From contig JBNGIO010006370.1 of assembly GCA_049999805.1 (NCBI GenBank), positions 373,212 to 437,211 on the forward strand: a stretch of DNA of 64,000 nucleotides. Reading direction: 5' to 3'. The DNA is from Folioceros fuciformis. Lineage: Eukaryota. Every line of letters starts with the position of its first letter. Position 1 is the first letter of the stretch. Both the position numbers and the translations under genes were made by a program. Shown here piece after piece: positions 365-25,382 of this stretch. The notes beneath the pieces are model-generated. The model was not told where the DNA came from. It worked only from the letters and a program-made list of their open reading frames with translations, and did not search any database.

Positions 365-3055
365 ATGGGCACAGTGTGGCAATCAGCACCGTTGTGGACC
401 CAACAGATTGGTGCGTGTACTGGGCTGCTACCAGCAGCTCCCGCTCACATCACTTCGGGGAGTGAACTGCTGGCAGAAAAAGCCTCCAGGTGGAGCACTG
501 GAAGGAGCCAAGCTCTTCCAGTTTCGAAAAAATGTGTGAGCGGGAACGGATTTTCCAGCGATGGGTTGCGCCGACAGCAGGAGCACTTGTGGCATCAGTT
601 TTTTCTAGACCCTGCCATGTGGGTGGACAACAGACGACACAAGCAGAGCTCCCGTTCGCCTGATTTCCGACGTAAGAGGTCGGGCGAGGTGCTGTGGCTG
701 AACAACATGTTTAAGCCTGCTTGGGTTGATGAGCAGCTGGTTTCCTTGGACATGCAGGTGGTAGGTGGGGCAGCCGCTCTGTCGAAGTTGAGCTTGGATG
801 GGTCTGGCACGAATGTTGGATCGGAAATGGGCGTCGTAACGCCTGGAGTTGTGAGCATGTTGTGTCGGCAGGGGAAGCTGGATGAGGCTGTTGGAGCCCT
901 GGATTCCCTGGCGCAGTCGAGCTCTGCTGTTTCTGAGTCTCTGTTGTACAGTGTGCTGAAGCTGTGTATGGTGAAGAAGGACTTGGTTGTAGGGCGACGA
1001 GTTCATGATCTCGCTGCAGAACTTGGGTACGAGTCGAGTCCGTTTTTGGGGAACCATATCTTGCGCATGTATGCTTGTGGCGGGAGTCTGCAGGAGGCGA
1101 TGGAGGTGTTCACCAGGGTGGGGAAACCGAATGTGTTTATGTGGTTCTCCATAATATCTGCTCATGCGAAGCACGGGAGACCGAAGGAGGCCATACAACT
1201 GTACCATGCGATGCGTAGGTCAGGTGTGAAGGCGAATGCTCACGTCTTTGTGGCTACCCTTCAGGCTTGTGCATTTGCTGCCGATTTGGAGTCTGGCAGA
1301 GAAGTGCACTGTGATGTGTTGCACAGTGGCGTTCCTCCTGACTTGTTTGTTGGCAACTGCCTGGTGGACATGTATGCGAAGTGTGGCGAATTGAAAGATG
1401 CACGCCAGGTGTTTGATAGCATGGTCGTTAAGGATGTGGTGACATGGAATTCCCTGATATCTGGGTATGCGAAATGTGGTGAACTGAACAAGGCACGCCG
1501 TGTCTTCGACAGCATGAGGGCAAAGGATGTGGTGACATGGAATTCCCTGATAGGTGGATACGCCCAGCAGGGTCTCGGACATGAGGCACTTGTCCTGTAT
1601 GGACAAATGGAGCAGGAGGGGCTGGTTTTGGCTGACAATGTTACTTTTGCTTGCCTTCTGAAGGCCTGTGCAAGCACTGGTGCCTTACAGAAGGGCAGGC
1701 AGCTGCACTCGCAGATTGTTGAAAGAGGGCCGCTGAATGACATAGTGCTGGGCAACTGCCTGGTGGATCTGTATGCCAAATGTGGTGAACTGGATGCTGC
1801 ACGCCAGGTTTTTGTCAGCCTCTCGTGTAAGGATGTGGTGACATGGACATCGCTGATCTCTGGGTATGCAAAGGGAGGACTGGGCCAAGAGGCACTTGAT
1901 TTGTATGGACAAATGGAGGAAGCGGGCCTGATTTTAGCTGATGATGTTACTCTTGCTTGCCTTCTGAACGCCTGTGGAAGCACCGGTGCCTTACAAATGG
2001 GCAGGCACCTGCACTTGCAGATAGTCGAAAGGGGACTGCTGGACAACACAGTGCTCTGTACCTGCTTGTTGGACATGTATGCAAAATGTGGTGAACTGGA
2101 AGACGCACGGCAGGTTTTTGACATCATGGCCACAAAGGATGTGGTGACATGGACCGCCCTCATATCTGGGTATGGTACTTGTGATGATGGTCAGAAGGCA
2201 CTAGCTTGCTTTGAGGAGATGATAGCGTCTGGTATTCAGCCGAATGATGCTACGTTCACTTGCCTTTTAGTAGCATGCAGTCATGCGGGACTGGTCCATG
2301 AGGGCCGCAAGCACTTCGATTCCATGGCTCAACAACATGGCATCCAACGTACTTGTGAGCATTACAATTGCATGGTTGACCTTCTTGGGCGTGCAGGCCA
2401 ATTAGATGAGGCAGAGCAGATGCTGTTGTCATATGAGGGCCGAAGTAATGTTGTGGGCTTGAGGTCTTTGTTGAGTGCCTGTAAAAGTCATGGGGACATA
2501 GAGAGGGCAGTGTGGTGTTTTGAAAACATTGTCCAGCTGGAGCCCCGGGAGGCAACCGCTTATGTGCTCATGGCCAATGCCTACGCGGATGCAGGTAGGT
2601 GGACCGATGTGGACAGAATTGAAACACAGAGAAAGTTAGCAGGAGCTATCAAGAAACCGGCAGTTACGACCATTGAGGTGAATAAGCAGGTACATAGATT
2701 TCTGGTGGGAGGAAGGGGAGAGGATATTTCTTTTAAGGTCGAGAGGACGACTGCACGTCTGGAGCTGGAAGGAGGTCACGTTCCTCATACCAAGTTGGTG
2801 TTGAAGCCACTGGGTGAGAAGCAAAAGGAAGATGCACTTTGCGGGCATGCTGAGAAGCTAGCTCTGGCGTTTGGTCTGTTGAACACTCCGAGTGGGACAC
2901 CTCTGGTGGTAACAAAGAACCTACGGATGTGCAGCGACTGCCACAGCTCTACGGAGATAATGTCAAAGCTTGAGCAGCGAGACATTGTTGTAAGGGATGG
3001 TTACCGTGTGCATCGATTCACAGATGGCTGTTGCACTTGTAAGGGTCGGCCGTGA
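365..3055 (+). CDS. PLS-class PPR protein with N-terminal OSB-like PDF motif and C-terminal DYW:KP (GRP-ending) domain; candidate U-to-C RNA editing factor
   Basis: Intronless 896-aa ORF. PLS repeats (YAKCG..ARQVF..KDVVTW), E1/E2, KKPAVTTIEV with no PG box, GHAEKLALAFGL, KNLRMCSDCH, terminal CTCKGRP*. Confidence 0.95.
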   Translation: MGTVWQSAPLWTQQIGACTGLLPAAPAHITSGSELLAEKASRWSTGRSQALPVSKKCVSGNGFSSDGLRRQQEHLWHQFFLDPAMWVDNRRHKQSSRSPDFRRKRSGEVLWLNNMFKPAWVDEQLVSLDMQVVGGAAALSKLSLDGSGTNVGSEMGVVTPGVVSMLCRQGKLDEAVGALDSLAQSSSAVSESLLYSVLKLCMVKKDLVVGRRVHDLAAELGYESSPFLGNHILRMYACGGSLQEAMEVFTRVGKPNVFMWFSIISAHAKHGRPKEAIQLYHAMRRSGVKANAHVFVATLQACAFAADLESGREVHCDVLHSGVPPDLFVGNCLVDMYAKCGELKDARQVFDSMVVKDVVTWNSLISGYAKCGELNKARRVFDSMRAKDVVTWNSLIGGYAQQGLGHEALVLYGQMEQEGLVLADNVTFACLLKACASTGALQKGRQLHSQIVERGPLNDIVLGNCLVDLYAKCGELDAARQVFVSLSCKDVVTWTSLISGYAKGGLGQEALDLYGQMEEAGLILADDVTLACLLNACGSTGALQMGRHLHLQIVERGLLDNTVLCTCLLDMYAKCGELEDARQVFDIMATKDVVTWTALISGYGTCDDGQKALACFEEMIASGIQPNDATFTCLLVACSHAGLVHEGRKHFDSMAQQHGIQRTCEHYNCMVDLLGRAGQLDEAEQMLLSYEGRSNVVGLRSLLSACKSHGDIERAVWCFENIVQLEPREATAYVLMANAYADAGRWTDVDRIETQRKLAGAIKKPAVTTIEVNKQVHRFLVGGRGEDISFKVERTTARLELEGGHVPHTKLVLKPLGEKQKEDALCGHAEKLALAFGLLNTPSGTPLVVTKNLRMCSDCHSSTEIMSKLEQRDIVVRDGYRVHRFTDGCCTCKGRP

Positions 3056-3931: not shown

Positions 3932-6178
3932 ATGATGGCCACGGTATGGCAACCAGACCCGGTATGGACCCAACAATGTGGTGTGTGGACAGGGATTCTG
4001 CCAGGAGCTCCCGCTCATGTCGCCCCAGCACACAAAGCTTGCAGGTGCAGCAGTGTGAGGAGCCCAGCATTTCCTCTTCCGGAGAAATGTGTCGGTGTAG
4101 ACGGATTTTCCAGCGGTGGGCGTCTCCAGGCGAAGGATGAATTGTGGCAACAATTTTCTCTGGGCTCCAGCCCGCCTGGCTTCCGGCGTAAACAGTCCGG
4201 TGATGCTCTGCGGTGGAACAGCCTACTCAAGGCTGCTCGGGTTGATGACCAGCTCGTTTCTTTGGACATGCAGCTGGGTCATGGTGCTTCTCCTTCCACG
4301 TCGAGTTGTCTGGATAAGCCTGAACCTGGTACGCGTGCAGGATCGGCCAGAGGCGCTGTAACGCCTGGAACCGTGCGCAGGTTATGTCAGCAGGGGAAGC
4401 TAACTGAGGCCATTGTAGCTCTGGAATCTCTGGCGCAAACAGACTCTCCTATCTCTCAGTCTCTGTTCTACGGTGTGCTAAGGTTGTGTACAGCTAATAA
4501 GGATTTGGTTGTGGGGCGTCGAGTTCATGATCTCATTCACAAGCTTGGGTACGAATCGAATGCATACTTGGGGAACAATATCTTGCGCATGTACGCATGT
4601 GCAGGAAGGCTGAAGGAGGCGATGGATGTGTTCAACAGGGTGGACAAACCAGATTCCTTTTTGTGGTGTTCCATAATCTCTGCCCACGGTAAACATGGGA
4701 AGCCTGAAGAGGCCATACAACTGTACCATCGGATGCGTAGGTCAGGGGTGAAGGTGGACGGTCACGTCTTTGTAGCTGTACTCCAGGCTTGCGCATTGGC
4801 CGGTGACGTGGAATCTGGCAGAAAAGTGCACTGTGATGTGTTGCACAGTGGCATTCCCACCAACTTGTTTGTTGGCAATTGCCTGGTGGGCATGTATGCA
4901 AAATGTGGGGAGCTGGAAGCTGCACGCCAGGTGTTTGACAGCATGACCACCAAAGATGTGGTGACATGGACCGCCCTGATTGCTGGGTATGCACAGCAAG
5001 GGCTTGGGCATGAGGCCTTGGATGTGTATGGACAAATGCAGCATGGAGGCCTGCTCTTGGCTAGCCGTATTACTTTTGCTTGCCTTTTGAACGCCTGTGC
5101 AAGCACTGGTGCCTTGCAGAAGGGCATGCAGCTGCACTCGCAGATTGTTGAAAGGGGACTTCTGGATGATATATACTTGGGCAACTGCCTTGTGGACATG
5201 TATGCAAAGTGTGGTGAACTGGAGGAGGCTCGCCATGTGTTTGATAGGATGAACACAAAGGATGTGGTGACATGGACCACCCTGATAGCTGGGTATGGTA
5301 CTTGTGATCAAGGCCGCAAGGCTATAGCCTGTTTTGAGGAAATGTTACTAGCCGGTATTCTGCCTAACGAGGCTACGTTCACCTGCCTCTTAGCAGCATG
5401 CAGTCATGAGGGACTGGTCTACGAGGGCCGCAGTTTCTTTGACTCCATGGGTGAACAGCATGGCATCAAACCTACTATTCAGCATTACACCTGCATGATT
5501 GATCTTCTTGGGCGTGCAGGGCATCTAGATGAGGCAGAGAAGATGCTCTTGTCATGTGAGGGCCAAAGTGATGTTGTGGGCTTGATAACTTTGTTGAATG
5601 CGTGCAAAAGCCACGGGGATATAGATAGGGCCAGGTTGTGTTTTGAGCGCATTGTTAGGCTGGACCCCCAGGATGCGCCTGCATATGTTCTCATGGCTAA
5701 TGCCTACGCAGATGCAGGTAGATGGGCCGATTTGGACAGGATTGAAACGTTGAGAAGGGTGGTAGGAGCGAGCAAGAAACCTGCAGTGGCGACCATCGAG
5801 GTGAACAAGCAGGTACATAGATTTGTGGTAGGAGAAACCAGAGAGGATATGGCACTGAAGGTAGAGAGTATGAATGCACGTGTGAAGCAGGAAGGAGGCC
5901 ACGCTCCTCACACAAAGCTGGTGTTGAAACCAGTGTGTGAGACGGAAAAGGAAGATGCGCTTTGTGGGCATGCGGAGAAGCTAGCTCTGGCTTTTGGCCT
6001 CATGAACACTCCAAGTGGGACACCTTTGGTGATAACGAAGAATCTACGCATGTGCAGCGACTGCCACAGTTCCACGGAGATCATGTCCAGGCTTGAACGG
6101 AGACACATTGTTGTGAGAGATGGGTATCGTGTGCATCGATTTGAAGATGGCTGTTGCAGTTGCAAGGGTCGACTGTAG
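3932..6178 (+). CDS. PLS-class PPR protein with DYW:KP domain ending GRL; tandem paralogue of 365..3055
   Basis: 748-aa intronless ORF with the same N-terminus (MATVWQPDPVWTQQ), KKPAVATIEV, GHAEKLA, CSDCH and terminal CSCKGRL*. Confidence 0.95.
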   Translation: MMATVWQPDPVWTQQCGVWTGILPGAPAHVAPAHKACRCSSVRSPAFPLPEKCVGVDGFSSGGRLQAKDELWQQFSLGSSPPGFRRKQSGDALRWNSLLKAARVDDQLVSLDMQLGHGASPSTSSCLDKPEPGTRAGSARGAVTPGTVRRLCQQGKLTEAIVALESLAQTDSPISQSLFYGVLRLCTANKDLVVGRRVHDLIHKLGYESNAYLGNNILRMYACAGRLKEAMDVFNRVDKPDSFLWCSIISAHGKHGKPEEAIQLYHRMRRSGVKVDGHVFVAVLQACALAGDVESGRKVHCDVLHSGIPTNLFVGNCLVGMYAKCGELEAARQVFDSMTTKDVVTWTALIAGYAQQGLGHEALDVYGQMQHGGLLLASRITFACLLNACASTGALQKGMQLHSQIVERGLLDDIYLGNCLVDMYAKCGELEEARHVFDRMNTKDVVTWTTLIAGYGTCDQGRKAIACFEEMLLAGILPNEATFTCLLAACSHEGLVYEGRSFFDSMGEQHGIKPTIQHYTCMIDLLGRAGHLDEAEKMLLSCEGQSDVVGLITLLNACKSHGDIDRARLCFERIVRLDPQDAPAYVLMANAYADAGRWADLDRIETLRRVVGASKKPAVATIEVNKQVHRFVVGETREDMALKVESMNARVKQEGGHAPHTKLVLKPVCETEKEDALCGHAEKLALAFGLMNTPSGTPLVITKNLRMCSDCHSSTEIMSRLERRHIVVRDGYRVHRFEDGCCSCKGRL

Positions 6179-7445
6179 AGGTGAGAAACATGAAGAAGTA
6201 GCCTGGGCTCAAGTGTCCATGCCAGAGACTGACTGCACTCCTTCTTGGGGTGAATGTGCTAGTTCATCTACATGCCTATCCCAACTAAAACATGGATACG
6301 GATGGCTAACTCGTCTGGAGGGTTACAGAGTCGGGCGAGCAGAACTGCGAGATATGGGCAGCTGTAGGAGATCCCGGTTAGAGGAGCAGGCCTGGAATTC
6401 ATCTCAGATCCGTTGTTGACAGCAGAGGCGGGACCTGATTCAGGTCCAACGACAGAAGGAAGCGATGAGCATTTCTTCCGGCAGTGAGGGCTTCTCGCTG
6501 TGAACACGGCAGCCAGGCGTCCCACGTAGGACTGCTCGGTTCAGCCGTGGTGTTGGATGTGCCTCGCAGATTATCCGGAATGTGCCCCTTACCTCTCTGT
6601 ACAAGGGTATGTGCCAGTCCGACTACCTCTGGTGCTGTCCTATGGAGTATGCAGTCTCCGAAAGACAAACTGTTTGAAGTCACTCAAGGAACAAAGGGAC
6701 ACAAAGGAGGGACGTGCACAGGAGAAGCAACTCCGCGTGTCCAATCACGGGGGGGTCAGAGGGGTGAGAAGGAGGCGGTTGAAAGTGCAGCATTGCACCC
6801 TTTCTGTAAATTGCAACCTGAGCATATTTCCATTCTTGTTGGAGCTCATGCTGCTATGAGGCCTGCGAGCCGCAGGGCTTGTTCCAGCAGCTGGTTTGGT
6901 TGCTGGTAGATTTCAGCCTCAGGAGCTGGCAACCTTTTCACTTTGCAAACCATGTGTCTTCACAGGGATCATGAACTGATAGTTGGCAGCTTTGGAGCAG
7001 ACAAGGTATAACTGTAACTATTTCCTAGGCGCTTGTTTTTATGGGCGTTGTGCGAAGGAGAGTTCTAACTAGCATCATCTTGTTTGCTCTGCTGGGTGTA
7101 GGTTGGTGTATTCGTATTCGTGGATGCCCCTCAATGTGCAACAATCACAAACCAGACCCAGATAGCATCGAGGACGCGTGCAGGGACGAGAATTCCGTCA
7201 TTTAGGATCATAGATCTTGTTTTTATATTGGCATCAAAAACTTCGTTAACTGTACCCTGAAGTCTAATGAACAAACATGTTCCTACCTGTGAAACTTTCT
7301 GTCCGGGAAACCATGCTCTTTTCTTCTCTTGGTACCCAACGACGAACCATCGGCACGGATGCTTTTTGGTGGTATGGTCACATACTGGAACTGGGCATCG
7401 TGTCATAGCAGTCGCTCATTTGCCATCAGCCATCTCTAATGAGCG

Positions 7446-8577: not shown

Positions 8578-9132
8578 AGGTTTACCGTAAACCCTGAACT
8601 GACAAAAAACACGACTTGCTAATATGGAGAAACTTCTTGCTGGTCCCTTCACCTCAGATCCGCCTCATCTTACATGTGCAAGTTCATTCCCTTCGGCCAC
8701 TCCAAACAAAATAGGAATTTCGAATATGGAAACCAAAACAGATGGTAGGCACAACTTACCACATCTTCGTCGCGTCCAGACCACCACTAACAAACTGTGT
8801 TGGACACGGCACAGGACCTAATGCTAAATACAGCAAACTATGAAAGGTATGATATGAGAACAAACTGGAGACGAGAGGTCAAATAAAATACCCCACAAGA
8901 TCTATTAAGCAACTGCTAAACATAAAACCTCAAACCAAGGCAAAGAATCCTCATACTAGAATCGGAGGTGCCTTGAGATTGTGGTATTGTGACCTGGGAT
9001 TGTGGTATTTAAGGGGCAGAGGTCCCAACACTTTTCTCCATGTGTTCTTTTGATTGAACAGGTTTGAACGTTCTTCTCAACTATTCAGTAGCTTTGAGCG
9101 CTCTTCTCAACTCTTTAGGACCGTAATTCAAG

Positions 9133-11581: not shown

Positions 11582-14500
11582 CTAAGGTCGACCCTTACAA
11601 CTGCAACAACCACTTGCAAATCGATGGACGCGGTACCCATCCCTTACAACAATGTCCCTCTGTTCAACCCTTGACATGATCTCGGTGGAACTGTGGCAAT
11701 CACCGCACATGCGTAGGTTCTTCGTTACCATCAGGGGTGTACCACTCGGAGTGTTCAAGAGACCGAAAGCCAAAGCTAGTTTCTCGGCATGCCCACAAAG
11801 AGCATCTTCTTTTTGCTTCTCACCCAGTGACTTCAACACCAACTTCGTGAGAGGTACGTGGCCTCCTTCCTGCTTCAGACGTGAATTCGTGCTTGCTACC
11901 TTGAGAGTTATGTCCTCTCGTCTTTCTCCCACAAGAAATCTGTGTACCTGCTCGTTCACCTCAATGGTGGCCACTGCAGGTTTCTTATTGCCTCCTGCTA
12001 CCATTCTCTGCGCTTCAATCCTCTCTGCATCGGTCCACCTGCCTGCATCTGCATAAGCATTGGCCATAAGCACATATGCGGACGCCCACCGAGGGTCCAG
12101 ACTAACAATGCTCTCAAAACACCACTTCGCTCTGCCAAGATCGCCATGGCTTTTACAAGCATTTAAAAACACCGTCAGGCCCACAACATTACTTTGGCCC
12201 TCACACGATAACAGCATCTTCTCTGCCTCATCTAAATGCCCAGCACGCCCTAAAAGATCAATCATACAAATGTAATGCTCGAAAGTAGGTTCAATGCCAT
12301 GCTGTTCAACCATGGATTCAAAGTGCTTGCGACCCTCCTGGACAAGTCCCTCATGACTGCATGCTACTAGAAGGCAAGTGAATGTAACACCGTCAGGCTG
12401 AGTGCCGGCAACTAGCATCTCCTCAAAACAAGCTAGTGCTCTGTGACCATCATCACAAGTACCATACCCAGATATCAGGGCATTCCATGTCACCACATCC
12501 TTGGTGGCCAAGCTGTCAAAAACGAGTCGTGCTGCATCCAGTTCGCCACATTTTGCATACATGTCCACCAGGCAGTTGCCCAACACGACGTTACCCAGCA
12601 GTCCTCTTTCCACAATCTGTGTGTGCAGATGCCTGCCCTTCTGTAGGGCACCCGTGCTTGCGCAGGCTTTTAAAACACAAGTCAAAGTAACATCGTCAGC
12701 CAAAATGAGGCCCTCTTGCTCCATTTGTTCATATAGAAGAAGCGCCTCTTGGCCAAGTCCTTGCTGTGCATACCCAGACATCAGGGCATTCCAGGTCACC
12801 ACACTCTTTGTGGCTATGCTGTCAAATACCAGGCGTGCATCTTGCAGCTCACCACACTTTGCATACATGTCCACCAGACTGTTGCCCAGCACTCCAGTGT
12901 CCAGTAGTCGTCTTTCAACAATCTGTGAATGCAGCTGCCTGCCCTTTGGCAAGGCACCAGTGCTTGCACAGACCTTTAGGAGGGAAGCAAAAGTGACACG
13001 ATCAGCCAAAATCAGGCCCTCTTGCTCCATTTGTGCGAACAGATTAAGCGCCTCTTGGCCAGGTCCATGCTGTGCATAGCCAGATATCATAGCATTCCAC
13101 GTCAACACATCCTTTGTGGCCATACTATTAAAAACCTGGCGAGCATCTTCCACTTCACCACATTTTGCGTACATGTCCACCAGGCAGTTGCCCAACAATA
13201 CACCATCAAGTAGTCCTCTTTTGACAATCTGTGAGTGCAGCTGCCTGCCCATCTGTAGTGCACCGGTGCTTCCACAGGCCTTCAGAAGGCAAACGAAAGT
13301 AACATGGTTAGCTACGGTCACACCCTCTTCCTCCATTTGTCCGTACAGAAAAAGCGCCTCTTGGCCGAGTCCTTGCTGTGCATACCCAGCAATCAGCGCG
13401 GTCCATGTGACAACATTCTTTGTGCCCAAGCTGTCAAACACTTGGTGCGCTTTTTGAAGTTCACCACACTTTGCATACATGTCCACCAGGCAGGTGCCCA
13501 CCAGTACGTCATCTAGAAGCCCTCTTTGAACAATCTGTACGTGCAGCTGCCTGCCCTTCTGTAAGGCACCAGTACTTGCACAAGCTTTCAGAAGGCAAGC
13601 GAAAGTAACGTGGTTAGGTGAAATCAGGCCCTCCTCCTCCATTTGTCCGTACAGAGCCAGTGCCTCATTACCGAGCCCTTGCTGGGCATACCCAGCTATT
13701 AAGGCATTCCATATCACTACATTCTTTGTTGCCATGCTGTCAAAAACCTGGCGTGCATCTTTCAAGTCACCACATTTCGCATACATGTCTATGAGGCAGG
13801 TGCCAACAAATAGAGTGATAGGAATGCCACTGTCCAAAACATCAGAATGCACTTTTCTGCCAGACTCCAAATCGGCGGCCAATGCACAAGCTTGAAGGGC
13901 AGCTACAAAGACGTGAGCATCCGCAATCACTCCTGACCTACGCATCTTATGGTACAGGTGTACGGCCTCCAAAGGCTTCCCATTCTTCGCATATGCAGAA
14001 ATTATGGAAAACCACATGAAGGAATTTGGTTTCCCCACCCTGGTGAACACATCCATGGCCTCCTGCAGCCTACCTCCACCTGCATACATGCGCAAGATAT
14101 GGTTCCCCAAGTAGGCATTCGACTCGTACCCAAGTTTCACCGTGAGATTATGGACTCGTCGCCCCACTACCAAGTTCTTTCTCATTGTACACAGTTTTAT
14201 CACTGTGTAAAACAGGGACTGGGAAATCGGAACATCTGTCTGTGCCAGAGATTCCAGGGCTCTCACGGCCTCTGACAGCTTCCCCTGCTGGCATAGCATG
14301 CTCACGGTCTCAGCTGTTATGACACCCACTTTTGATTCTGCACGCATGCCAGGTTCAGGCTTATCCGGAGGGCTCCAGTCGGAAGGATAGGCACCATGAC
14401 CCATCTGCATATCCAAGGGATCGAGCTCCTCATCAACCCAATCTCGCTTGAACGTGTTGTTTAACCACAGGACCTCGCTGGACCCCCCATGCCGGATGTC

Positions 14501-14797
14501 AAGCGATCGGGAGGCCTGCTTATCTCGTCTGCTGTCCCACCCCATGACAGGTTCCGGCAAAGATTGTTGCGACCAATGCTCCTGCTCCTGGTGACGACCA
14601 TCGCTGGAAAACCAGTCCCTACCCACACATTTGGGCGGAAATGGACGAGCTGGGCTACCAACGCTGCTGCAATTGGAGGCTTCGTTTGCAAGGATCTGAC
14701 TCCTTAAAGTGAGGTGGGCGGGAGCGCCCCGAAGAATCCCTGTGCACAAACCACTTTGTTGGGTCCACAACGGTTCCGGTTGCCATGCTGTGGACAT
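11582..14797 (-). CDS. PLS-class PPR protein with DYW:KP (GRP) domain; long paralogue
   Basis: Intronless ORF with ATG at 14797 (MSTAWQPEPLWTQQ), four internal PLS triplets, KKPAVATIEV, GHAEKLA, CGDCH and CSCKGRP*. Confidence 0.95.
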   Translation of the reverse strand: MSTAWQPEPLWTQQSGLCTGILRGAPAHLTLRSQILANEASNCSSVGSPARPFPPKCVGRDWFSSDGRHQEQEHWSQQSLPEPVMGWDSRRDKQASRSLDIRHGGSSEVLWLNNTFKRDWVDEELDPLDMQMGHGAYPSDWSPPDKPEPGMRAESKVGVITAETVSMLCQQGKLSEAVRALESLAQTDVPISQSLFYTVIKLCTMRKNLVVGRRVHNLTVKLGYESNAYLGNHILRMYAGGGRLQEAMDVFTRVGKPNSFMWFSIISAYAKNGKPLEAVHLYHKMRRSGVIADAHVFVAALQACALAADLESGRKVHSDVLDSGIPITLFVGTCLIDMYAKCGDLKDARQVFDSMATKNVVIWNALIAGYAQQGLGNEALALYGQMEEEGLISPNHVTFACLLKACASTGALQKGRQLHVQIVQRGLLDDVLVGTCLVDMYAKCGELQKAHQVFDSLGTKNVVTWTALIAGYAQQGLGQEALFLYGQMEEEGVTVANHVTFVCLLKACGSTGALQMGRQLHSQIVKRGLLDGVLLGNCLVDMYAKCGEVEDARQVFNSMATKDVLTWNAMISGYAQHGPGQEALNLFAQMEQEGLILADRVTFASLLKVCASTGALPKGRQLHSQIVERRLLDTGVLGNSLVDMYAKCGELQDARLVFDSIATKSVVTWNALMSGYAQQGLGQEALLLYEQMEQEGLILADDVTLTCVLKACASTGALQKGRHLHTQIVERGLLGNVVLGNCLVDMYAKCGELDAARLVFDSLATKDVVTWNALISGYGTCDDGHRALACFEEMLVAGTQPDGVTFTCLLVACSHEGLVQEGRKHFESMVEQHGIEPTFEHYICMIDLLGRAGHLDEAEKMLLSCEGQSNVVGLTVFLNACKSHGDLGRAKWCFESIVSLDPRWASAYVLMANAYADAGRWTDAERIEAQRMVAGGNKKPAVATIEVNEQVHRFLVGERREDITLKVASTNSRLKQEGGHVPLTKLVLKSLGEKQKEDALCGHAEKLALAFGLLNTPSGTPLMVTKNLRMCGDCHSSTEIMSRVEQRDIVVRDGYRVHRFASGCCSCKGRP

Positions 14798-15182
14798 CGT
14801 CAAGCGAAAGATGAGTCTAAGGACAGACTACATGTTCTATAGAAGCACATGCCCGGGTATTGAGCTTAAAGCGAAGGGACTATCCATGTGTATGATCACA
14901 CAAATCTGAAGGGTAACTGAGACAAAAATACACTGGAATCTTCCAGCCAAGGAAGAGATTCCAAAGTTTTGGCCACCGACCGGTAAAGCGCGCTTAGATT
15001 CAAGCCATCGAAGAACTCCTTCCTTTCAGAGAATGATTCATTGGATTTGATTACCACAGTTAGGGTGTCAGATGGGGTAGCAGGGAGACGAAGACGTCAG
15101 ACGTTTCTCGGTGTGGCTTGGGATGCGAGCACGTTTTACTTGTCTTCTCTGCCGTAGACACTCGAGCACTGGCTAGTTACTG

Positions 15183-15800
15183 CCACGGTCGACCCTTACA
15201 ACTACAACAAATGGTTGTACGCATCACCCATCCCTTACAACAATGTCACTCTGCTCTATCCTTGACATGATCGCCGTGGAACTGTGGCAGTCACTACACA
15301 TGCGTAGATTCTTCGTTACCACCAGAGGTATGCCACTGGGAGTGTGCAAGAGATCAAACGCCACAGCTAGCTTCTCAGAATGCCCACAAAGTGCATCTTT
15401 TTCCTTCTCCTGCAATGGCCTCAACACCAAGTTTGTGTGAGGTTTATGTCCTCCTTCCTCCTTCATACGCGCATTCGTGCTCTCCACTTTGAGCGCAATA
15501 TGCTCTCGTTTCTCCCACTGGGAATGTGCAAGAGACCAAACGCCACAGCTAGCTTCTCAGCATGCCCAAAAGGGCATCTTCTTTTTCCTTCTCCTGCAAT
15601 GGCTTCAACACCAAGTTTGTGTGAGGTATATGACCTCCTTCCTCCTTCATACGTGCATTCGTGCTCTCTACCTTGAGCGCAATATGCTCTCTTGGTTCTC
15701 CTACCAGGAATGTATGCACCTGCTCCTTTACCTCAACGGTTGCCACTCCAGGTTTCTTGTTAGCTCCTGCTGCCCTTCTCTGTGTTTCAATATAGCCGAT
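15183..15800 (-). pseudogene. DYW:KP domain remnant with an internal ~182-bp tandem duplication
   Basis: KKPGVATVEV...ALKVESTNARMKEEGGH; the segment is duplicated (15333-15514 and 15515-15700). Frameshift near ALCG, stop after VVRDG, and an out-of-frame CCSCKGRP. Confidence 0.88.
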
Positions 15801-15933
15801 TCTGCACCCGCGTCCAGGAAACTTGGAGGGAAAGCTTAATGGTGGTGATGATGTGAAGGCAATTCGTCTCCGAGGTGAGGTCTTTCGAATGGAGAAAATC
15901 ATATCGAGCGGATTGAGGATGCTAATCGAGACT

Positions 15934-18183
15934 CTAAATGGGCATATAATGAGTACATGATATATTCCCAGTTTGCCTCAGCAGTAAGGTTACCTTATCT
16001 AGAAGGTCATGTACTTCCTCATGTTCAGGGTGCTTGCGGTCTCCTACGTAGAATGTGTGCGCTTCCTGCTCGACCTCAATCCAGCTCCACCCAGGTTCCT
16101 TCCAGGCACCTTCCCTCCTTCTGCACTTGAATAGTGCCTTTGCTTGGTCAAAGAGGCCGGCATCGGCATAGATGTGTGACATCAAAACATATGCTGCAGC
16201 ATCCTTGGGTTGCAGACGTAAGGCACAATCAAAAACACGTTCTGCCAGGGCTATGTTGCCATGCTTCCGACAGGCCGCCAGGACGCAAAGCCATGTTGCC
16301 AGGTCAGGCTGAATTGGCATCACTGACAAGAGCTCCTCCACCTTTGAAAAGTTTCCTGCGCGGCCGAAAAGGTCTACCATGCTCACATAATGCTCGATTT
16401 CCGGGGTCACGCCGAAGTCTTTGCTCATGGATTCGAAGTACTCCACACCTTTCTCGACCAGGCCGGCATGACTGCAAGCTGTGAGAAGGGACACAAATGT
16501 CACCGCATCTGGGTGAATTCCTGCTAGTCGCATGGCCTGATAACATTGCAGGGCTTCTTGCCCCAGCCCATACTGAGAATATCCAGTGACCATGGCTGAC
16601 CATGTCACAACATCTCTTGTGCTCATACTATCAAACACCTTGCGGGCATCGTCGAGACTCCCACACTTTGCATACATGGCCACCAGGCAGTTGTTGACAA
16701 CAAGGTCAGCTCCAAGCCCTCTTGTCTGGATCTGACAGTGAAGCTGCTTACCCTGCTGCAATGCACCAATGCTGGCACATGCCTTCAGAAGGCAAACAAA
16801 TGCAACATGATCATTCGGATCGATGCCCTCTTTTTGCATGACTGCATAAAGAGACAGCACTTCCTGACCAAGACCATGCTGGGCATATCCACAAAGCATC
16901 GAGGTCCATGTTACCCCATCTTTGGTCAGCATAGTGTCAAACACCCTGCGGGCCTCGTCCAAGCTGCCGCATTTCGCATACATGTCCACCAGACAGTTAC
17001 TGACAAGCACGTTAGATTCCAGTCCTCTTGCCTGAATCTGAGAATGGAGCTGCTTCCCCTGGTGTAGAGCACCAGTGCTGGCACATGCTTTCAGCAGGCA
17101 CAAGAATGTAACGTAGTCAGCTGGAAACATCCTTTCCTGCTCCATAACTGCGTAAAGCGCAAGGGCTTCCTTACCGTGCCCAAGCTGAGCATATCCTGCT
17201 AGCATAGCAGTATATGCCACCACATTTCTTGAGGGCAAATTATCAAACACCCTGCGGGCATCCGCTATGCTCCCACATTTCGCATACATGTCCACCAGGC
17301 AGCTACCAACAACTACATCACGGTCGAGTCCCCTACCCTGAACTTGGGCATGAAGCTGTTTGCCAAGGTCTAACGCTCTGATGCTGGCACATGCGTTCAG
17401 GAGGCAAACAAAAGTAACCTGGTCAGCTGGTATGATGGCCTCCTGTTGCATATTTGCATAGAGAGCAAGAGCTTCTTCCCCAAGCCCATGCTGGGCATAT
17501 CCTGCAAGCATTGCAGTCCACGTCACCACATTCTTGGTGGTCAAGTCGTCAAAAACCCTGCGTGCATTATCTAGGCTACCGCATTTCGCGTACATGTCAA
17601 CCAGGCAACTGCCAACAAACACATTTGGCTCAAGTTCAGTCCGCAGAAAATCAGCATGGACCTCCCTGCCTGAAGCCAAATCTGCTGCGTTTGCACATGC
17701 TTTAAGGACAGCCACAAATATATGAGCGTCTGGTGTAACTCTTGACTGACGCATCTGCCAGTACAGTTTTATTGCCTGCATGGGTTCTCCGTGTTCGGCA
17801 TGGGCTGAAATCAAGGACGACCACATGTATGCGTCTGGAGAAATCAGTTTGGCGAATACCTCCAATGCTTCAGTCAGCCTACCGTGAGAGGCATACATGC
17901 AGATTGTGTGGTTCGCTAAAAACTTGTTAAGCTCATAGCCACTCGAAACGATAAGACCATGGACCTTTCTTCCAAAATCCAACTCCTTCTTCGTGGTACA
18001 CTCTTTCAGGACCCCTCGGAAGAGAGATGCTGGAATATACGATCCCTGACGAGAGAGCAGATTCAAGGCTTCGACGGCTTCACCAGTCAATCCCTCCTCA
18101 GACTGTTCGCTCCCTTCTCCATGCCCTACCAACCTGCACCACGAAGGCCACTCCCGCCGCCCCCTTGCCTGTAATTTTTTCAT
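15934..18183 (-). CDS. PLS-class PPR protein, E+ type (PG box, no catalytic DYW); 5' end uncertain
   Basis: PLS repeats, E1/E2, KEPGWSWIEV...GDRKHP, then stop before any HxE. First in-frame ATG at 18183; an upstream exon is possible. Confidence 0.9.
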   Translation of the reverse strand: MKKLQARGRREWPSWCRLVGHGEGSEQSEEGLTGEAVEALNLLSRQGSYIPASLFRGVLKECTTKKELDFGRKVHGLIVSSGYELNKFLANHTICMYASHGRLTEALEVFAKLISPDAYMWSSLISAHAEHGEPMQAIKLYWQMRQSRVTPDAHIFVAVLKACANAADLASGREVHADFLRTELEPNVFVGSCLVDMYAKCGSLDNARRVFDDLTTKNVVTWTAMLAGYAQHGLGEEALALYANMQQEAIIPADQVTFVCLLNACASIRALDLGKQLHAQVQGRGLDRDVVVGSCLVDMYAKCGSIADARRVFDNLPSRNVVAYTAMLAGYAQLGHGKEALALYAVMEQERMFPADYVTFLCLLKACASTGALHQGKQLHSQIQARGLESNVLVSNCLVDMYAKCGSLDEARRVFDTMLTKDGVTWTSMLCGYAQHGLGQEVLSLYAVMQKEGIDPNDHVAFVCLLKACASIGALQQGKQLHCQIQTRGLGADLVVNNCLVAMYAKCGSLDDARKVFDSMSTRDVVTWSAMVTGYSQYGLGQEALQCYQAMRLAGIHPDAVTFVSLLTACSHAGLVEKGVEYFESMSKDFGVTPEIEHYVSMVDLFGRAGNFSKVEELLSVMPIQPDLATWLCVLAACRKHGNIALAERVFDCALRLQPKDAAAYVLMSHIYADAGLFDQAKALFKCRRREGAWKEPGWSWIEVEQEAHTFYVGDRKHPEHEEVHDLLDKVTLLLRQTGNISCTHYMPI

Positions 18184-18596
18184 TTTCGGCAAGGGGCAAC
18201 TGATCTGCAATCTCTATCCCTCTGGCATCGCCTGGATGTCCCCTGTCTAATCTCTGGTAAGCCTCCTGGTATGGCATTGCATCTCCTCCTCCTGCGGGAC
18301 CATGGGAGGAGGAGATCCAAAGCCATGGCCTAACCATGGAAGGCAATGTTTCGCGTGCTAACCTGCACTACGTGTCCGCCGCGTTTATTCCAATTGCAGG
18401 GGCTCAGGTGCTGACCAAGGTGGTTCAACCTAACTTCCAAGTTTTGAAAGCTGAACAATATGTATGACATCCGTGCACGCACTCTACGAACTATGGTAGA
18501 TATGGGTTGTGCTGAACTCCGATGCTCGGTGAATGCCAGGTTCTGTAAGGGAGGAAGATCGGCTGGTGTTTTGCTCTGTGGATGCCAGCTGTGGGA

Positions 18597-21041: not shown

Positions 21042-22288
21042 TTTCCTGGGCTTTCCTGTCCAGCTCCCTGAGCCTGAATCAATCGGCAGTGCAACACATC
21101 GGAGGGCGGTTTGAGGACCATGGCTACCGGCCCACTGCAGGAGCACTGCAGTCCCTGAGCCATGCGACAGACATTGCCCATGACAGTTGGCGCTGCTGAA
21201 GTCCCTGCATGCGCCCGCCGACGGCAGTTCCCGCACCAGCTGCTTGATTCCTGTGACTCTCTACAAGCCCACAACCAGAGTCCAATAGATCCTCCTGGCT
21301 GCAATTCCTCGAGCTCCAGTTTTAACTCGGAACTGGGAGAGCACAGACATCAGACTTCAGGATTTGACACAGACAAACAGAGAGGAACGAAATCAGCTCT
21401 CATTGTGCTGCGGTGTACACATCAACTGCCACCCCATCCCATGCCCAGCCTGGCCCGTCATCTGATCTCTCTCCGTGATGGCATTCCGCTAAATTCGCCA
21501 CAGAACGGACGTTATTCCAAGTGTCATACCCTTAGCACGTACAGTAGGTGGCACTTATGCCTTCCTGATTGATGAACTGGGTTCCTGATCTCTTCCTTTC
21601 TCTGAGGGAGTGTGTAAAGTTGATGGCTCGATCTTCCACAGTCTCTCAGTCGGGCTCGAGCCGGTGGAGAACAATGAGCCCGCGTTTCTTCTTCACTGAT
21701 CGGGGCTCAGAGGGACAGGATCATGCTGCTTCTTGCCATCCGTCACAGCGGCAGCAGCTGGGCATGGGGGTTGGCGGTACGTGTGTAGTATTGATCTTTT
21801 GGAGGAGGAATGAGATGAAGTTGTCACGCATTTGGATGTGGGCTTGTTGTTGCAGATAAGGTCGCGGCGAGGGAACAGCTGTGGAAAAGCTTTTTCTCGG
21901 ATCCAAGCCTGTGGTGGGACAATAGACCCCGGAAGGTATACAAGCTTTGATGTTGGATTGGGAGATTGCCACCGTTGCAATGTCGGGCAGCCTGCTGATC
22001 CTCCTCTTTTCAGAATAACCCCAGGTATCCTGATTTCAGACACAAGGAAACAAACGACGTGCTGTGGATTGACAGCCGGTGGAATCCTCGGTGGGTTCAA
22101 GCTAAGATAGATGCAATGCCTGAGGCACATGCGTCGTCATCCCAAGGTGTGAAGGACAGCAGCCACTTGGCTTCCGGAGCAGCTGCGGAGTGTTGGAGGT
22201 AGAAAGGAGGCTAGAATGTGTGATTTCTGAGGCTTCCGGTTCTGCTGAGATTGTTAGCGATGTGTGAAGCCTGAGTTTGCATATGCAG

Positions 22289-25200
22289 GGTGGGCAGGAA
22301 TGTTACCAGGCTATGTGAAGGAGGGCAGTTGAAGGAGGCTGTGCTGGTTTTGGATTCCATGTCTGAAAGGGGCCACTGTTGTCCTACCGATGTCTATGTG
22401 CGTGTTTTGCAGGAATGCATCCGACAGAAGGCTCTTGCAGAAGGCAAGAAAGTGCACAAACACGTCATCAGGAGTGGTTCGGACATGGACATGTTGGGTA
22501 ATATTCTGATCAGGATGTACGCTAGCTGTGGAAGTCTGGTTGATGCGGAGCAGGTGTTCGACAATATGGCAAAGGGAAGCTTGCCCTCATGGACGCCTCT
22601 CATCAAACCGTTTGTGGATCATGGGTACTTGAACAAGGCTCTTCAGCTCGTCGCAGGACTGGAGAAAATGCGTGGTGCAAAAGCTGACGTCACTTCTACG
22701 TTTCTCCTCATGGTGAATGCCTGTGCTTCCCCAGAAGCCCTCGGGAGAGGGAGGCAAGTTCACGCTCTGCTTGTGGACAGAGGCTTGGAGTTGGATCCTA
22801 CTGTAAGCAGTGCTCTCCTTGCCATGTATGTCAAGGGTGAATGCGTGGAATATGCCCTTGACTTGTTCCGCAAAATCCCTGATCCAAGTTTGTTGTCCTC
22901 GAATACCATCATATCAGGGCTTGAGCAACAGGGCCTTCCAGCACAGGCTCTTGAAGTTTTTAGAAGCATGGTGCACAGAGGCGTTCAGCCTGATTCCTTC
23001 ACACTTCTCAAGGTTCTGCGCTGTGCGCATAGCCTGCAAGATGTACAGGAAGTTCACTCGTGCATCATGTCATCACAATGTGAGACAAACATCTCTGTGA
23101 AGAATTGCTTGTTGGCCAAGTATGCAAAGTGTGATAGACTGGTGTCAGCACGTGAGGTGTTTGACGGAATGTCAAAGCGCAATCTGGTCACTTGGAACAC
23201 CATGATTGGTGCTGTCTCCCAGAGCCGCGGAGGTGCAGACGAAGCTTTGGCGCTGTTCACAAGAATGTGTGAGGAAGGCACGAGCCCAGATGCAACGACC
23301 TTTGTCTGTTTGCTCAGTGCCTGTTGTGGCTCAGCAGATGTGGAGATGGGTGAGAAGATTCACGATCTCATCAAGAGGCACGGATGTGAAGCAGACACTT
23401 TCGTGGGAAATGCTCTCGTAACCATGTACTCCAAGTGCAGCAGCATATGTGCTGCCCGCGAAGTCTTCGATAACATGAAGGTGCGCAATGTAGTATCTTG
23501 GAATGCCATGATAGCTGCCTATGCCCAACATGGGTTCGGTGAGGACGCACTGGAGCTCTTTGACATGTTGCAGAAATCTGGAATCAGGCCAAACCAAGTC
23601 AGCTGTATTTGTGCCTTGAATGCCTGTGCTGCCATCAAGGCCCTGGAAAAGGGCAGGGACATTCACCAGGTGGTACTCAGATGTGGATACCAGTTGGACG
23701 AGTTCGTGCAGAACAGCTTGGTCGACATGTACGCCAAGTGTGGCAGCATACAGGATGCATGCCATCTGTTCGATGCCAGTTGCAAGCGAAGTGTTGTCCT
23801 CTACACTGCCATGATGAAAGGTCTGTGTCAACAAGGGCTGTTCCTCGAAGCAGTCGACCTGTTTCAGCAAATGCATGAGGAAGGAGTTGAACCCGACAAG
23901 GTGACATTTGTGTGTCTCCTGAACGCGTGTGCCAGTCTGGGAGCTCTGGAGTTCGGCAGGCAGGTGCACTCCCGGATCAGGATGAGTGGGCTGGACAAGG
24001 ACCTGTATGTGGGCACCTGCCTGGTGCACATGTATGCGAAATGCGGGAGCACCGATCTTGCCCGGCAGGAATTCGACAAGCTCCCGAAGCACGATGTGGT
24101 TTCCTGGTGCGCCATGATCAACGGCTACATCCAGGGAGGAAATGCTCCAGCAGCATTACAGCTTTTCCATCTCATGCACGAGCAGGGCGTGGTGGCAGGT
24201 GCTGTCATGTGCACGTCTGTCCTGAACGTGTGCGGCAGCGCTGCTGCCCTGGAAGACGGCCGGCGAGTCCATGCAGATGTGGTGAGATGGGGCCTGGAGT
24301 TGGATCCCCTGGTAGGGCCAGCTCTGGTGGACATGTACGTCAAGTGTGGAGCCACGGGCGATGCACGCCGGGTCCTGGACGTGCTGCCAAAGCGTGACGT
24401 GGTTTCCTTCAGTGCCATGATCAAAGGGTACGCAGAAGATGGGCAGCCTCATGAGGCGTTGCAGCTGTTGCCCCAGATGCTACAAGAGGATGTGAAGCCA
24501 AATGCCGTGACCTTCGTGTCCTTGCTCGCTGCGTGTGCGAGCGTGCCTGCTCTGGAAGAGGGCAGGAAGGTGCACGACCTCGTCGTCCAAAGCGAGCTGG
24601 AGACAGACGTGTTCGTGGCCACTGCGCTTGTGGACATGTACGCCAAGGCTGGAAGCTTGGAGGATGCGTGCCAGGTGTTTGGCAAGCTCCGTGAGCGGGA
24701 CACTGCGACGTGGAATGCCATGATCTTAGCATTTGCGCAGCACGGCCGCGGAACCGAGGCCCTCGGACTTCTGCAGCAAATGGTGGAGGAGAACGTGAAG
24801 CTGGATCGCATCACATGGATCAACATCTTGACAGCCTGCAGCCACAAGGGCCTGGTGGACGAGGGCCTGGAGGTCTTCCGATCGATGGTGGAAGAACATG
24901 GTCTGGTGCCGGAGGACGTGCACTACGGCTGCGTCGTGGACATGTTCAGCCGAGCTGGACGACTGGATGATGCAGAAGCCTTCATCGCTGGGCTGCCTTC
25001 CCCGCCGGGCGTCTGCGTCTGGACGTCTCTGCTCGGTGCCTGTAGAATCCACGGCGATGCAGAGCTCGCTCAGCGAGCTGCTGAGCGCATCTTGGAGCTC
25101 GACCCGGAAGATGCCTCTGCATATGTGCTCATTGCCAAATTCTATTCTGAGGCCGGAAGGTGGGGTGACGGGATTGAAATCCGGAGGTTGATGAAGGACA

Positions 25201-25382
25201 GGGAAGTGAAGAAGCTTCCCGGGTGGAGTCGCATTCAAGTGGACTCTCACACACACACTTTCCTGGCCAAGGACATTTCCCATCCCAATATTCGCGAAAT
25301 ACATGCAGAGATTGCAAGGTTGTTACAAGAAATAGAATCAGATGCTGAATCATCAAACTTCACTACTGATGGTACAGGCTAA
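22289..25382 (+). CDS. Long PLS-class PPR protein, E+ type (PG box, no catalytic DYW); upstream exon/start not resolved
   Basis: 1030-aa ORF of PLS repeats ending KKLPGWSRIQVDSHTHTF..DISHP. The ORF is preceded by an acceptor-like TTTGCATATGCAG ending at 22288. Confidence 0.92.

Follow-up and report, generated by a model that had tools for sequence, protein, structure and literature searches.

The window, that is, the whole stretch of 64,000 nucleotides of Folioceros fuciformis DNA that was analysed, carries close to its start an intronless gene, g1 (365-3055, plus strand), encoding a protein of 896 amino acids. Its layout, PDF-PPR-E-DYW:KP (GRP-type), was assigned from the open reading frame (ORF), its translation, and Pfam matches to the PPR, E motif and DYW_deaminase families. 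The N-terminal 69 residues (365-571, plus strand) are rich in serine, alanine and glycine and contain only three acidic residues. No Pfam or NCBIfam family matched this region, and its composition and position suggest that it is an organelle-targeting peptide. It is followed by the PDF module at aa 70-129 (572-751, plus strand), which is delimited by a profile hidden Markov model (HMM) and backed by shuffles and by hhalign, and whose P-D-F tripeptide lies in the translation at aa 99-101 (659-667, plus strand). The stretch singled out by the first-pass annotation, aa 75-121 (587-727), lies inside this module, and both its wording and the position given for the tripeptide match the translation of the uninterrupted ORF 365-3055 exactly. 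The same annotation had placed the module between a presumed transit peptide and the first PPR, in agreement with the stretch of about 70 residues before it that could be a targeting peptide.

Beyond the module lies a short and poorly conserved linker (aa 130-160; 752-844, plus strand), recognised by comparison with g2 and g3, two paralogues of g1 in the window. Computed on aa 130-165, amino acid identity among the three linkers is 0.36-0.58 and dN/dS 0.65-0.84. The PLS-type PPR array spans aa 161-708 (845-2488, plus strand), the first PPR-like alignment starting at aa 161, and is matched by the Pfam PPR families PF01535 (1.1e-83) and PF13041 (3.9e-80); within it, PLS triplets form a tandem repeat with a unit of 306 nt (1465-2174). 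The array is followed by an E motif at aa 709-771 (2489-2677, plus strand; PF20431, E 2e-14), which includes a KP box identified by pattern match at aa 764-770 (nt 2654-2674, plus strand), and by a DYW-family deaminase domain of the KP/GRP variant at aa 804-894 (2774-3046, plus strand; PF14432, E 1.5e-31). The zinc site HxE...CxxCH is present, with HAEK at aa 828 and CSDCH at aa 856. [quoted passage not shown] The protein belongs to the PLS class of PPR proteins, combines an E motif with a DYW domain of the KP type (GRP variant) and, judged by its family, is a candidate organellar U-to-C editing factor. The ORF, its translation and the Pfam matches bear out the earlier proposal that one protein joins a PDF module to a PPR array and to a DYW domain of the KP type. 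Regarding transcription, contigs from sequencing runs gave nothing specific to g1 among the matches listed, with paralogues cross-mapping. Contigs identical to the window omit 7004-7099 and 18418-18537 and therefore look spliced, and one contig spans 4042-4528, in g2.

Profile comparisons establish that the g1 stretch is truly homologous to the PDF motif of OSB proteins, as the first-pass annotation had recognised from the sequence. An HMM built from OSB motifs only (134 motif instances from 74 OSB-like, non-PPR proteins) matches the g1 ORF with 70.3 bits and an E-value of 4.3e-21 among 1916 ORF segments of the window, aligned at aa 70-129 (nt 572-751). The isolated stretch of 65 residues scores 78.2 bits, whereas the best of 2000 shuffles reaches 13.3 bits. 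With this score g1 falls inside the interquartile range for OSB motifs, the median of 238 non-PPR motif instances being 81.1 bits, and among PPR-attached motifs, which score 68-91 bits with the exception of P0092, the nearest database relative, at 55.1 bits. Alignment of the g1 motif with hhalign to 15 proteins named OSB1, OSB2 or OSB3 gives a probability of 99.7% and an E-value of 1.1e-26. Of 17 positions invariant in 15 named OSBs, 13 are identical in g1 when mapped by alignment, and the P-D-F residues do not vary among these OSBs or among 15 PPR-attached motifs. The conserved pattern of about 50 residues derived from OSB-like proteins (W..F..P..WWDNR..K.....PDFKHK...E.LW.....P.WV) is present in g1, and the consensus of the 238 non-PPR instances is nearly identical to that of 19 PPR-attached ones. 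A profile of the motif copies in the window finds 751 matches at E<=1e-3 among 1.84e9 representatives, and these include OSB1 from Populus (E 2.3e-23) and OSB3 from Chenopodium (E 1.4e-50), aligned at their C-terminal repeats.

Other resources contributed little to this comparison. Pfam holds no model for the PDF motif; a PDB sequence search with the motif profile gave only chance matches (E about 1), and one with the named-OSB profile found only SSB OB folds, the PDF part being unmatched. The best score in the ESM Atlas was 0.82, below the meaningful level. A word search with the g1 motif as a single sequence returned 15 candidates, none of them scored, and one with residues 1-70 of P0111 from Selaginella returned only the query itself. 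In a tree of 258 motif instances (64 columns, with some of the rows classed as "other" probably being PPR fragments), the PPR-attached motifs are not monophyletic, with 11 changes for 20 instances, a grouping that on such data carries no information. A cross-validation with two profiles classified 171 of 200 instances correctly, with class confounded with taxon and fern OSBs among the misclassified OSB motifs, and favours neither one fusion event nor several.

The OSB proteins (OSB1-4 from Arabidopsis and their homologues) have the PDF motif in common with the PDF-PPR proteins, in one to three tandem copies. Contrary to g1, they have an SSB-like OB fold ahead of the motifs and no PPR repeats; the fold is placed by PDB matches to SSB at positions 74-184 of the named-OSB profile and by weak PF00436 matches. 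In g1 and the other 64 PDF-PPR proteins described below there is no SSB-like domain, and the motifs are N-terminal. Pfam finds no SSB or OB domain in g1, none appears in aa 1-162 at E<=1 with Pfam and NCBIfam, and iterated searches with the N-terminal region of Populus OSB1 recovered 74 and 55 OSB-like proteins and no PPR protein. Set against the definition of the OSB family, g1 has the PDF motif (one copy, aa 70-129) and lacks the OB fold, and it is therefore not an OSB protein but a PPR protein carrying an OSB module.

The motif has had different fates in other genes of the window. In g2 (3932-6178, KP type), alignments reveal a motif remnant with a 13-residue deletion at 4115-4270 (plus strand), which the OSB-only HMM does not match significantly (E 4). 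The motif of g3 (11582-14803, KP/GRP type), at 14408-14602 on the minus strand, is degenerate, with its signature residues replaced in the alignment and a score of 27.7 bits. Between g2 and g3, dN/dS is 1.29 in the motif (47 codons only) versus 0.20-0.24 in the PPR-DYW part, and the synonymous divergence of g1 from its paralogues is 0.58-0.70. The motif has evidently been left to decay in these two KP paralogues, and that of P0092 is degenerate as well.

A canonical PDF motif, split by an intron, is found in g5. The first half lies on an exon with AG/GT borders that ends after the invariant K (21856-21935, plus strand; 29.6 bits at HMM positions 4-27), followed by a phase-0 GT..AG intron of 78 nt (21936-22013, plus strand) and by the second half of the motif (22014-22133, plus strand; 46.3 bits at HMM positions 27-60). 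Once spliced, the motif reaches 80.8 bits with the same OSB-only HMM. The second exon continues to a donor between 22135 and 22198, alternative donors and acceptors being present. The main exon (22290-25382, plus strand) encodes a PLS PPR array, an E motif and a PG-type box, without a DYW domain. In all 15 moss-like split loci checked, the intron sits at exactly the same position as in g5.

The fusion extends well beyond this window. Among relatives drawn from the best 150 of 751 and the best 120 of 847 matches, at least 64 further PPR proteins carry one to three N-terminal PDF motifs. They come from Diphasiastrum, Selaginella, Adiantum, Pteridium and Sphagnum, and most of them are of the E type or the canonical DYW type, as are the members from Sphagnum. 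The best 120 of 847 matches contain 53 PDF-PPR proteins, 47 of which have an E motif; a DYW domain is present in 12, each of which ends in DYW and lacks a KP box, and the other 41 are E-type proteins without a DYW domain. When g1 is included, all motifs lie N-terminal to the PPR array in 63 of 65 proteins, the median start of the first motif is aa 74, the gap between motif and array has a median of about 20 residues, and every protein of the set with a named source organism belongs to a non-seed plant. Since up to three tandem copies precede the PPR arrays in relatives, the module is not merely a transit peptide. Thirteen positions are invariant in 15 PPR-attached motifs from the five genera named above, g1 being one of the 15 rows. 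In raw contigs, the OSB-only HMM matches the start of the PPR ORF in 71 of 80 moss-like loci found with a single-protein query. Intron-bearing forms share a conserved intron inside the motif, and g1 represents the intronless form.

The arrangement in which a short linker joins N-terminal PDF motifs, one to three in number, to a PLS array is old and widespread in non-seed land plants, and the fusion is neither unique to g1 nor specific to DYW:KP proteins. A special link between the PDF motif and DYW:KP, whose co-occurrence the first-pass annotation had proposed to score, is not supported: the KP box is found in none of the 12 DYW-bearing members among the 53 PDF-PPR proteins from the best 120 of 847 matches, the motif has decayed in two of the three KP paralogues of the window, and U-to-C editing in E. 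coli is reported for designer GRP-type KP proteins that have no PDF module (PMC9478123).

With regard to function, the motif is described in OSBs as "responsible for ssDNA binding" (PMC4166229), the only activity reported for it in the available text of two reviews, which are also the source for ssDNA binding by the AtOSB1 motif (PMC6963530, PMC4166229). The preferred explanation, to which we give about an even chance, is that the module clamps single-stranded nucleic acid, in this case RNA, without sequence specificity, as an accessory in cis that would be dispensable for catalysis. Binding of RNA by PPR tracts is parallel: the N-terminal repeats contact the 5' nucleotides, and the DYW domain lies at the base that is edited. 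Because of this parallel binding, the PDF module would sit just 5' of the sequence-specific footprint. There, the invariant aromatic and basic residues (W, F, W, R, K, F, W, W) might raise affinity or hold the target unfolded. Against a clamp on RNA stand the reported preference of OSB1 and OSB2 for ssDNA over RNA (PMC4166229), the dispensability of the motif in the close paralogues g2 and g3, together with its degeneration in P0092, and the editing at 22-26% reported in E. coli for designer GRP-type KP proteins without the module (PMC9478123).

The preference for ssDNA would instead favor a tether, where the module, like that of OSBs, would bind organellar ssDNA in transcription bubbles, R-loops or replication intermediates and bring the editor to nucleoids, so that it meets nascent RNA. 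Binding of ssDNA, preferred over RNA, is the only reported activity of the motif (PMC6963530, PMC4166229), and on the OSB-only profile the PPR-attached motifs, P0092 apart, score like those of OSBs. This explanation is nevertheless unlikely, as the literature searched does not connect editing factors of the PPR family in these plants with nucleoids, and the fixed site directly before the first PPR, at a gap of about 20 residues, would be explained no less well by a longer RNA footprint. More doubtful still is that the g1 motif is a functionless inheritance from an ancestral PDF-PPR gene, merely not yet decayed in the KP/GRP clade. Such a history would agree with the lost signature in g2 and g3, with the dN/dS of 1.29 between their motifs versus 0.20 in the PPR-DYW part, with the degenerate motif of P0092, and with the function of designer GRP proteins without the module (PMC9478123). 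However, g1 retains all 13 positions invariant in the 15 PPR-attached motifs, g1 itself among the rows, and scores within the OSB interquartile range despite its synonymous divergence from the paralogues, two observations that on so small a sample are suggestive only.

It is improbable that the motif serves assembly, by oligomerising or by recruiting another organellar factor without binding nucleic acid. AtOSB2 is reported to be tetrameric (PMC6963530), and other proteins contain tandem arrays of up to 13 motifs, but the available text of the reviews assigns ssDNA binding to the motif, not oligomerisation (PMC6963530, PMC4166229). Redirection of the DYW domain to single-stranded DNA, resulting in DNA base editing, is highly improbable, the point in its favor being only the co-occurrence of an ssDNA-binding motif and a deaminase-like domain in one protein. 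The same module is present on E-type PPR proteins without a DYW domain (41 of the 53 from the best 120 of 847 matches, and g5) and is therefore not tied to catalysis; in addition, PPR-DYW proteins are, as a family, RNA editors. A chance resemblance or a merged gene model, for which nothing speaks beyond the shortness of the motif, is rejected by the HMM E-value of 4.3e-21, by shuffles that do not exceed 13.3 bits, by the single uninterrupted genomic ORF of g1, and by raw contigs, in which 71 of 80 independent loci show the arrangement.

Returning to the clamp on RNA, several known systems offer points of comparison. The hornwort DYW:KP GRP subgroup, whose members are candidate U-to-C editing factors, shares, together with the designer proteins KP2 and KP3, with g1 the PLS array, the E motif, the KP box, HAE...CxDCH and the C-terminal GRP. 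Contrary to g1, the subgroup is described from its P2-L2-S2-E1-E2-DYW end, with no N-terminal module mentioned in the available text, and KP2 and KP3 have no PDF module (PMC9478123). The RRM-PPR proteins from moss (PMC9459714) also combine a PPR array with a second nucleic-acid-related module, the RRM being a general RNA binder beside a specific one; PPR fusions with SMR, NYN, LAGLIDADG, CBS or SAP domains do the same, with a different module. PMC9459714 does not include the PDF motif among the additional domains that it lists for PPR proteins, and neither OSB nor PDF occurs in the fusion survey of PMC13386178. No description of the PDF-PPR fusion was found in the literature searched, where a mention in supplements could have escaped, and the combination is apparently newly recognised here; the fact that Pfam has no model of the motif would explain why domain-based surveys miss it. 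A possible analogy, in function only, is with the MORF/RIP helpers of seed-plant editosomes, accessory factors that raise RNA binding by PLS PPR proteins and whose MORF genes are reported in seed plants only (PMC13386178). Unlike the PDF module, these helpers act in trans and are unrelated in sequence.

In plant organellar RNA editing, specificity is provided by PLS-class PPR proteins, which also underlie programmable C-to-U and U-to-C editors and whose accessory domains have been catalogued repeatedly. To these is now added a conserved N-terminal homologue of the OSB motif, which dozens to hundreds of PPR proteins of the editing type carry in four non-seed lineages and which has a conserved gene structure. 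A more far-reaching scenario, with only a slim chance of being correct, is that PDF-PPR proteins bind both RNA and ssDNA and load on the ssDNA of organellar nucleoids, at transcription bubbles or R-loops, coupling the recognition of editing sites to transcription in hornworts, mosses, lycophytes and ferns. The module would then be an ancestral, built-in helper of land-plant editing factors that became dispensable once seed plants gained MORF proteins and, in the extreme version, some members would act on DNA. If the module raises affinity or opens the target RNA, it would help to explain editing in plants without MORF proteins, and designer PPR editors would gain a small add-on of natural origin.

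The window is plant nuclear DNA, in which six PLS-class PPR genes (g1 to g6) are found beside other genes. The first of them, g1 (365..3055, plus strand), is an uninterrupted ORF of 896 aa. Pfam leaves its first 160 residues without a match and places an E motif at aa 709-771 and a DYW deaminase domain at aa 804-894 (E 1.5e-31), in addition to PPR repeats. In its C-terminal part a KP box replaces the PG box, HAE...CSDCH is present, and the last residues are GRP. DYW:KP domains are known from hornworts, lycophytes, and ferns, and GRP is the name given to one of two hornwort DYW:KP subgroups (PMC9478123). The first-pass annotation had placed a PDF motif, the ~50-aa motif of organellar ssDNA-binding (OSB) proteins, at residues 75-121 of this protein (nt 587-727); the translation is identical to its quote, with the P-D-F tripeptide at residues 99-101 (nt 659-667).

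A profile built from the motif copies of the window (A1) was compared with 1.84 billion representative proteins. At E<=1e-3 it matched 751 of them, of which 249 also passed E<=1e-10 and 23 passed E<=1e-30. Many matches are proteins of 330-470 aa with two or three matched stretches near the C terminus, and among those matched are proteins named by NCBI as "protein OSB1, mitochondrial-like" from Populus nigra (E 2.3e-23) and "protein OSB3, chloroplastic/mitochondrial-like" from Chenopodium quinoa (E 1.4e-50). The N-terminal SSB-like region of the Populus OSB1 is common to 74 of the best 150 of the 751 matches, none of these 74 bearing PPR repeats. An OSB-only HMM made from 134 motif instances of these 74 proteins was then run reciprocally on 1916 ORF segments of the window, where it matched g1 significantly (aligned aa 70-129, 70.3 bits, E 4.3e-21), followed by the second and first motif exons of g5 (46.3 bits, E 2.1e-13, and 29.6 bits, E 3.9e-8) and by g3 (27.7 bits, E 9.6e-8); the score of g2 was not significant (E 4). 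The isolated 65-aa stretch of g1 reached 78.2 bits versus a maximum of 13.3 in 2000 shuffles, and 238 non-PPR motif instances, partly overlapping the HMM training set, had a median of 81.1 bits (quartiles 70.3 / 91.8). In a profile-profile comparison, 15 PPR-attached motifs (A4) matched 15 full-length proteins named OSB1, OSB2 or OSB3 (A5) with a probability of 99.7% and E 1.1e-26, aligning to residues 287-349 of the Populus OSB1. By our mapping from A5 and this alignment, g1 is identical at 13 of the 17 invariant positions of the last OSB motif, the four departures being W to V, K to R, H to R, and T to S. The agreement of the forward search, the OSB-only HMM, the shuffle control, and the profile-profile comparison establishes that the g1 stretch is homologous to the OSB PDF motif. 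Both the observation and the OSB homology proposed in the first-pass annotation were thus correct, and the consensus given there is in substance the one derived here from the data.

As an OSB protein itself, g1 is ruled out: named OSBs possess an SSB-like OB fold (weak matches to PF00436), whereas none was found in g1. The A5 profile matches solved SSB structures at positions 74-184; for the PDF part, neither the A1 nor the A5 profile found a sequence match among solved structures. Pfam-A holds no model for the PDF motif, even in named OSBs. Tandem series of 9 to 13 PDF matches were found in some proteins (P0002, P0003, P0004, P0010, and P0012); P0002 from Kingdonia uniflora (1160 aa), for instance, has 13 together with a weak SSB match. 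Such proteins may be genuine poly-PDF OSBs or products of merged gene models. PDF motifs are also found beside a kinesin motor domain in P0047 from Coptis chinensis, and in an "Interactor of constitutive active ROPs 2" in P0031 from Striga hermonthica; in both cases the model probably joins an OSB gene to the gene beside it.

The motif occurs N-terminally on PPR proteins in 15 of the best 150 of the 751 A1 matches, from Diphasiastrum complanatum, Selaginella moellendorffii, Adiantum capillus-veneris, Pteridium aquilinum, Sphagnum species, and Logan contigs, and Pfam confirmed the PPR identity of all 13 submitted. Of 8000 candidates scored with the A4 profile, 847 proteins passed E<=1e-3. The best 120 of these comprise 53 PPR proteins, 55 with an OSB-type N-terminal region, none with both, and 12 with neither. 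Among the 53 PPR proteins, 51 come from D. complanatum, one from Adiantum (P0036), and one from a Logan record (P0005); 18 carry one motif copy, 28 two, and seven three. Genes for PDF-bearing PPR proteins (PDF-PPRs) are greatly expanded in this one lycophyte, D. complanatum (P0221-P0312): 51 clusters fall among these best 120, and most have two or three motifs in tandem at the N terminus. In 63 of the 65 PDF-PPRs (g1 counted among them), all motifs precede the PPR array; over the 65, the median start of the first motif is residue 74.

The special emphasis that had been placed on DYW:KP was not borne out. According to precomputed Pfam annotation, 47 of the 53 PPR proteins have an E motif and 12 a DYW domain; each of these 12 terminates in DYW, and the KP box is absent from all of them. 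Among the window's genes and the matches listed, the only KP-type members are g1-g3 and the Logan protein P0092. This predominance of E-type and canonical DYW members indicates that the PDF module is a feature of editing-type PLS PPR proteins generally, and not of the KP branch.

Within the window, g5 (main ORF 22290..25382, E-type with a PG-type box) encodes a canonical motif across two small exons. The first (21856-21935) ends directly after the invariant K and is followed by a 78-nt GT..AG phase-0 intron (21936-22013), the second exon starting at 22014; spliced in silico, the motif reaches 80.8 bits. The gene model is provisional, with candidate start codons at 21572, 21623, and 21674 and likewise provisional borders of the next intron. 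Using P0136 from Sphagnum fallax as a query against metagenome contigs, 351 related stretches were found and 80 moss-like loci kept; in 71 of these the OSB-only HMM matches where the PPR ORF begins, in the same orientation. Of the 71 loci, 44 carry a motif split at HMM position 27/28, 22 a contiguous one, and five a partial one; counting distinct motif DNAs (differing by >=3%), 20 are split and 16 contiguous. As in g5, a phase-0 GT..AG intron immediately follows the codon of the invariant K in all 15 distinct split loci examined. This common position argues that the PDF-PPR gene type is older than the divergence of the moss-like DNA and the window's organism, and that the intronless forms g1-g3 are derived, which fits a PPR expansion reported to be driven by retroposition (PMC13386178). 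At one moss-like locus, L009, the contig has a second half-motif match (8751-8819) ~5.7 kb downstream of its first PDF-PPR gene, suggesting tandem PDF-PPR genes as in the window.

The remaining PPR genes, g4 (15934-18213, minus strand) and g6 (53375-56485, minus strand), are PLS genes with a PG-type box and an E motif, and no PDF motif is detectable in or just upstream of either. Contigs of the sequencing run X1, otherwise identical to the window, omit 18418-18537, suggesting an upstream exon for g4. Between g3 and g4, frame-shifted and broken E2/DYW-like pieces (15224-15977, minus strand) are similar to the C-terminal ends of g1-g3 and look like a pseudogene remnant; a 184-nt stretch among them is tandemly duplicated (15333-15691). 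Ordinary neighbors include an AAA_33 kinase-like ORF (30024-30932, minus strand), a protein-disulfide-isomerase-like gene with two thioredoxin domains (34630-36528, plus strand), and a DUF4005 (IQ-domain type) ORF (43652-44605, plus strand). Long ORFs with Ig-like domains of the CFAP65 type (cilia- and flagella-associated protein 65; 56970-62033, minus strand) are consistent with a plant having motile, flagellated sperm. Assembly gaps are found at 31125-31224 (100 bases) and 42160-42559 (400 bases).

In the literature searched, the term "PDF motif" appears in five papers, three of which deal with OSBs and none of which mentions PPR proteins, and searches linking OSB or PDF with pentatricopeptide proteins, including in Selaginella, gave nothing relevant. 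The additional domains listed for moss PPR proteins in one overview are RRM, LAGLIDADG, SMR, NYN, CBS, and SAP (PMC9459714), and a 2026 survey of domain fusions in editing factors (PMC13386178) contains no occurrence of OSB or PDF. Two known modules are joined here in an ancient and common architecture, apparently undescribed in the literature searched.

According to reviews, the AtOSB1 motif suffices for ssDNA binding or is responsible for it, and OSB1 and OSB2 prefer ssDNA over dsDNA or RNA (PMC6963530, PMC4166229). PPR arrays contact the 5' end of the bound RNA with their N-terminal repeats, and the DYW domain is positioned at the edited base. The PDF module holds a fixed position before the first PPR repeat (median gap ~20 residues in the 65 PDF-PPRs, by a crude measure), and its invariant residues are mostly aromatic and basic in the 15 motifs of A4. 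Most likely, the module would act as an unspecific clamp on single-stranded nucleic acid, lengthening the RNA footprint 5'-wards or holding the target open. A tether to nucleoid ssDNA is a rival reading. The emphasis on DNA-directed activity in the first-pass annotation is not supported. A protein-protein role is a further rival to the clamp.

For g1 specifically, the motif could also be a vestige, a reading to be set beside its fate in the KP clade. The KP paralogues g2 (3932..6178) and g3 (11582..14803, minus strand) show a synonymous divergence of ~0.6-0.7 from g1 and each other in the PPR-DYW part, where dN/dS is 0.20-0.24, rising to 0.65-0.84 in the linker. The motif of g2 has a 13-residue deletion, that of g3 has lost several signature residues, and that of P0092, the nearest database relative, is degenerate too (55.1 bits). 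Motif dN/dS is 1.29 between g2 and g3 (47 codons) and 0.38-0.40 between g1 and either paralogue, on few codons. Given the decay in g2, g3, and P0092, the module is dispensable for some KP/GRP proteins, g1 being the copy that kept it. Nor is the module needed for catalysis, since designer GRP-type proteins without it are reported to perform U to C editing at 22-26% in E. coli (PMC9478123). Tandem repeats of 306 nt (102 codons, about one P-L-S triplet of PPR motifs) occur inside g1 (1465-2174, 2.3 copies) and g3 (12463-13808, 4.4 copies) with 77-78% matches, and recent internal duplication probably explains the length differences between g1 (896 aa), g2 (748 aa), and g3 (~1071 aa).

The PDF-PPRs with a visible source, among the best 150 of 751 and the best 120 of 847 matches, all come from non-seed plants, and MORF genes are reported from seed plants only (PMC13386178). 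Resting on the top of these two match lists, such a complementary distribution of MORF and PDF-PPR proteins is suggestive.
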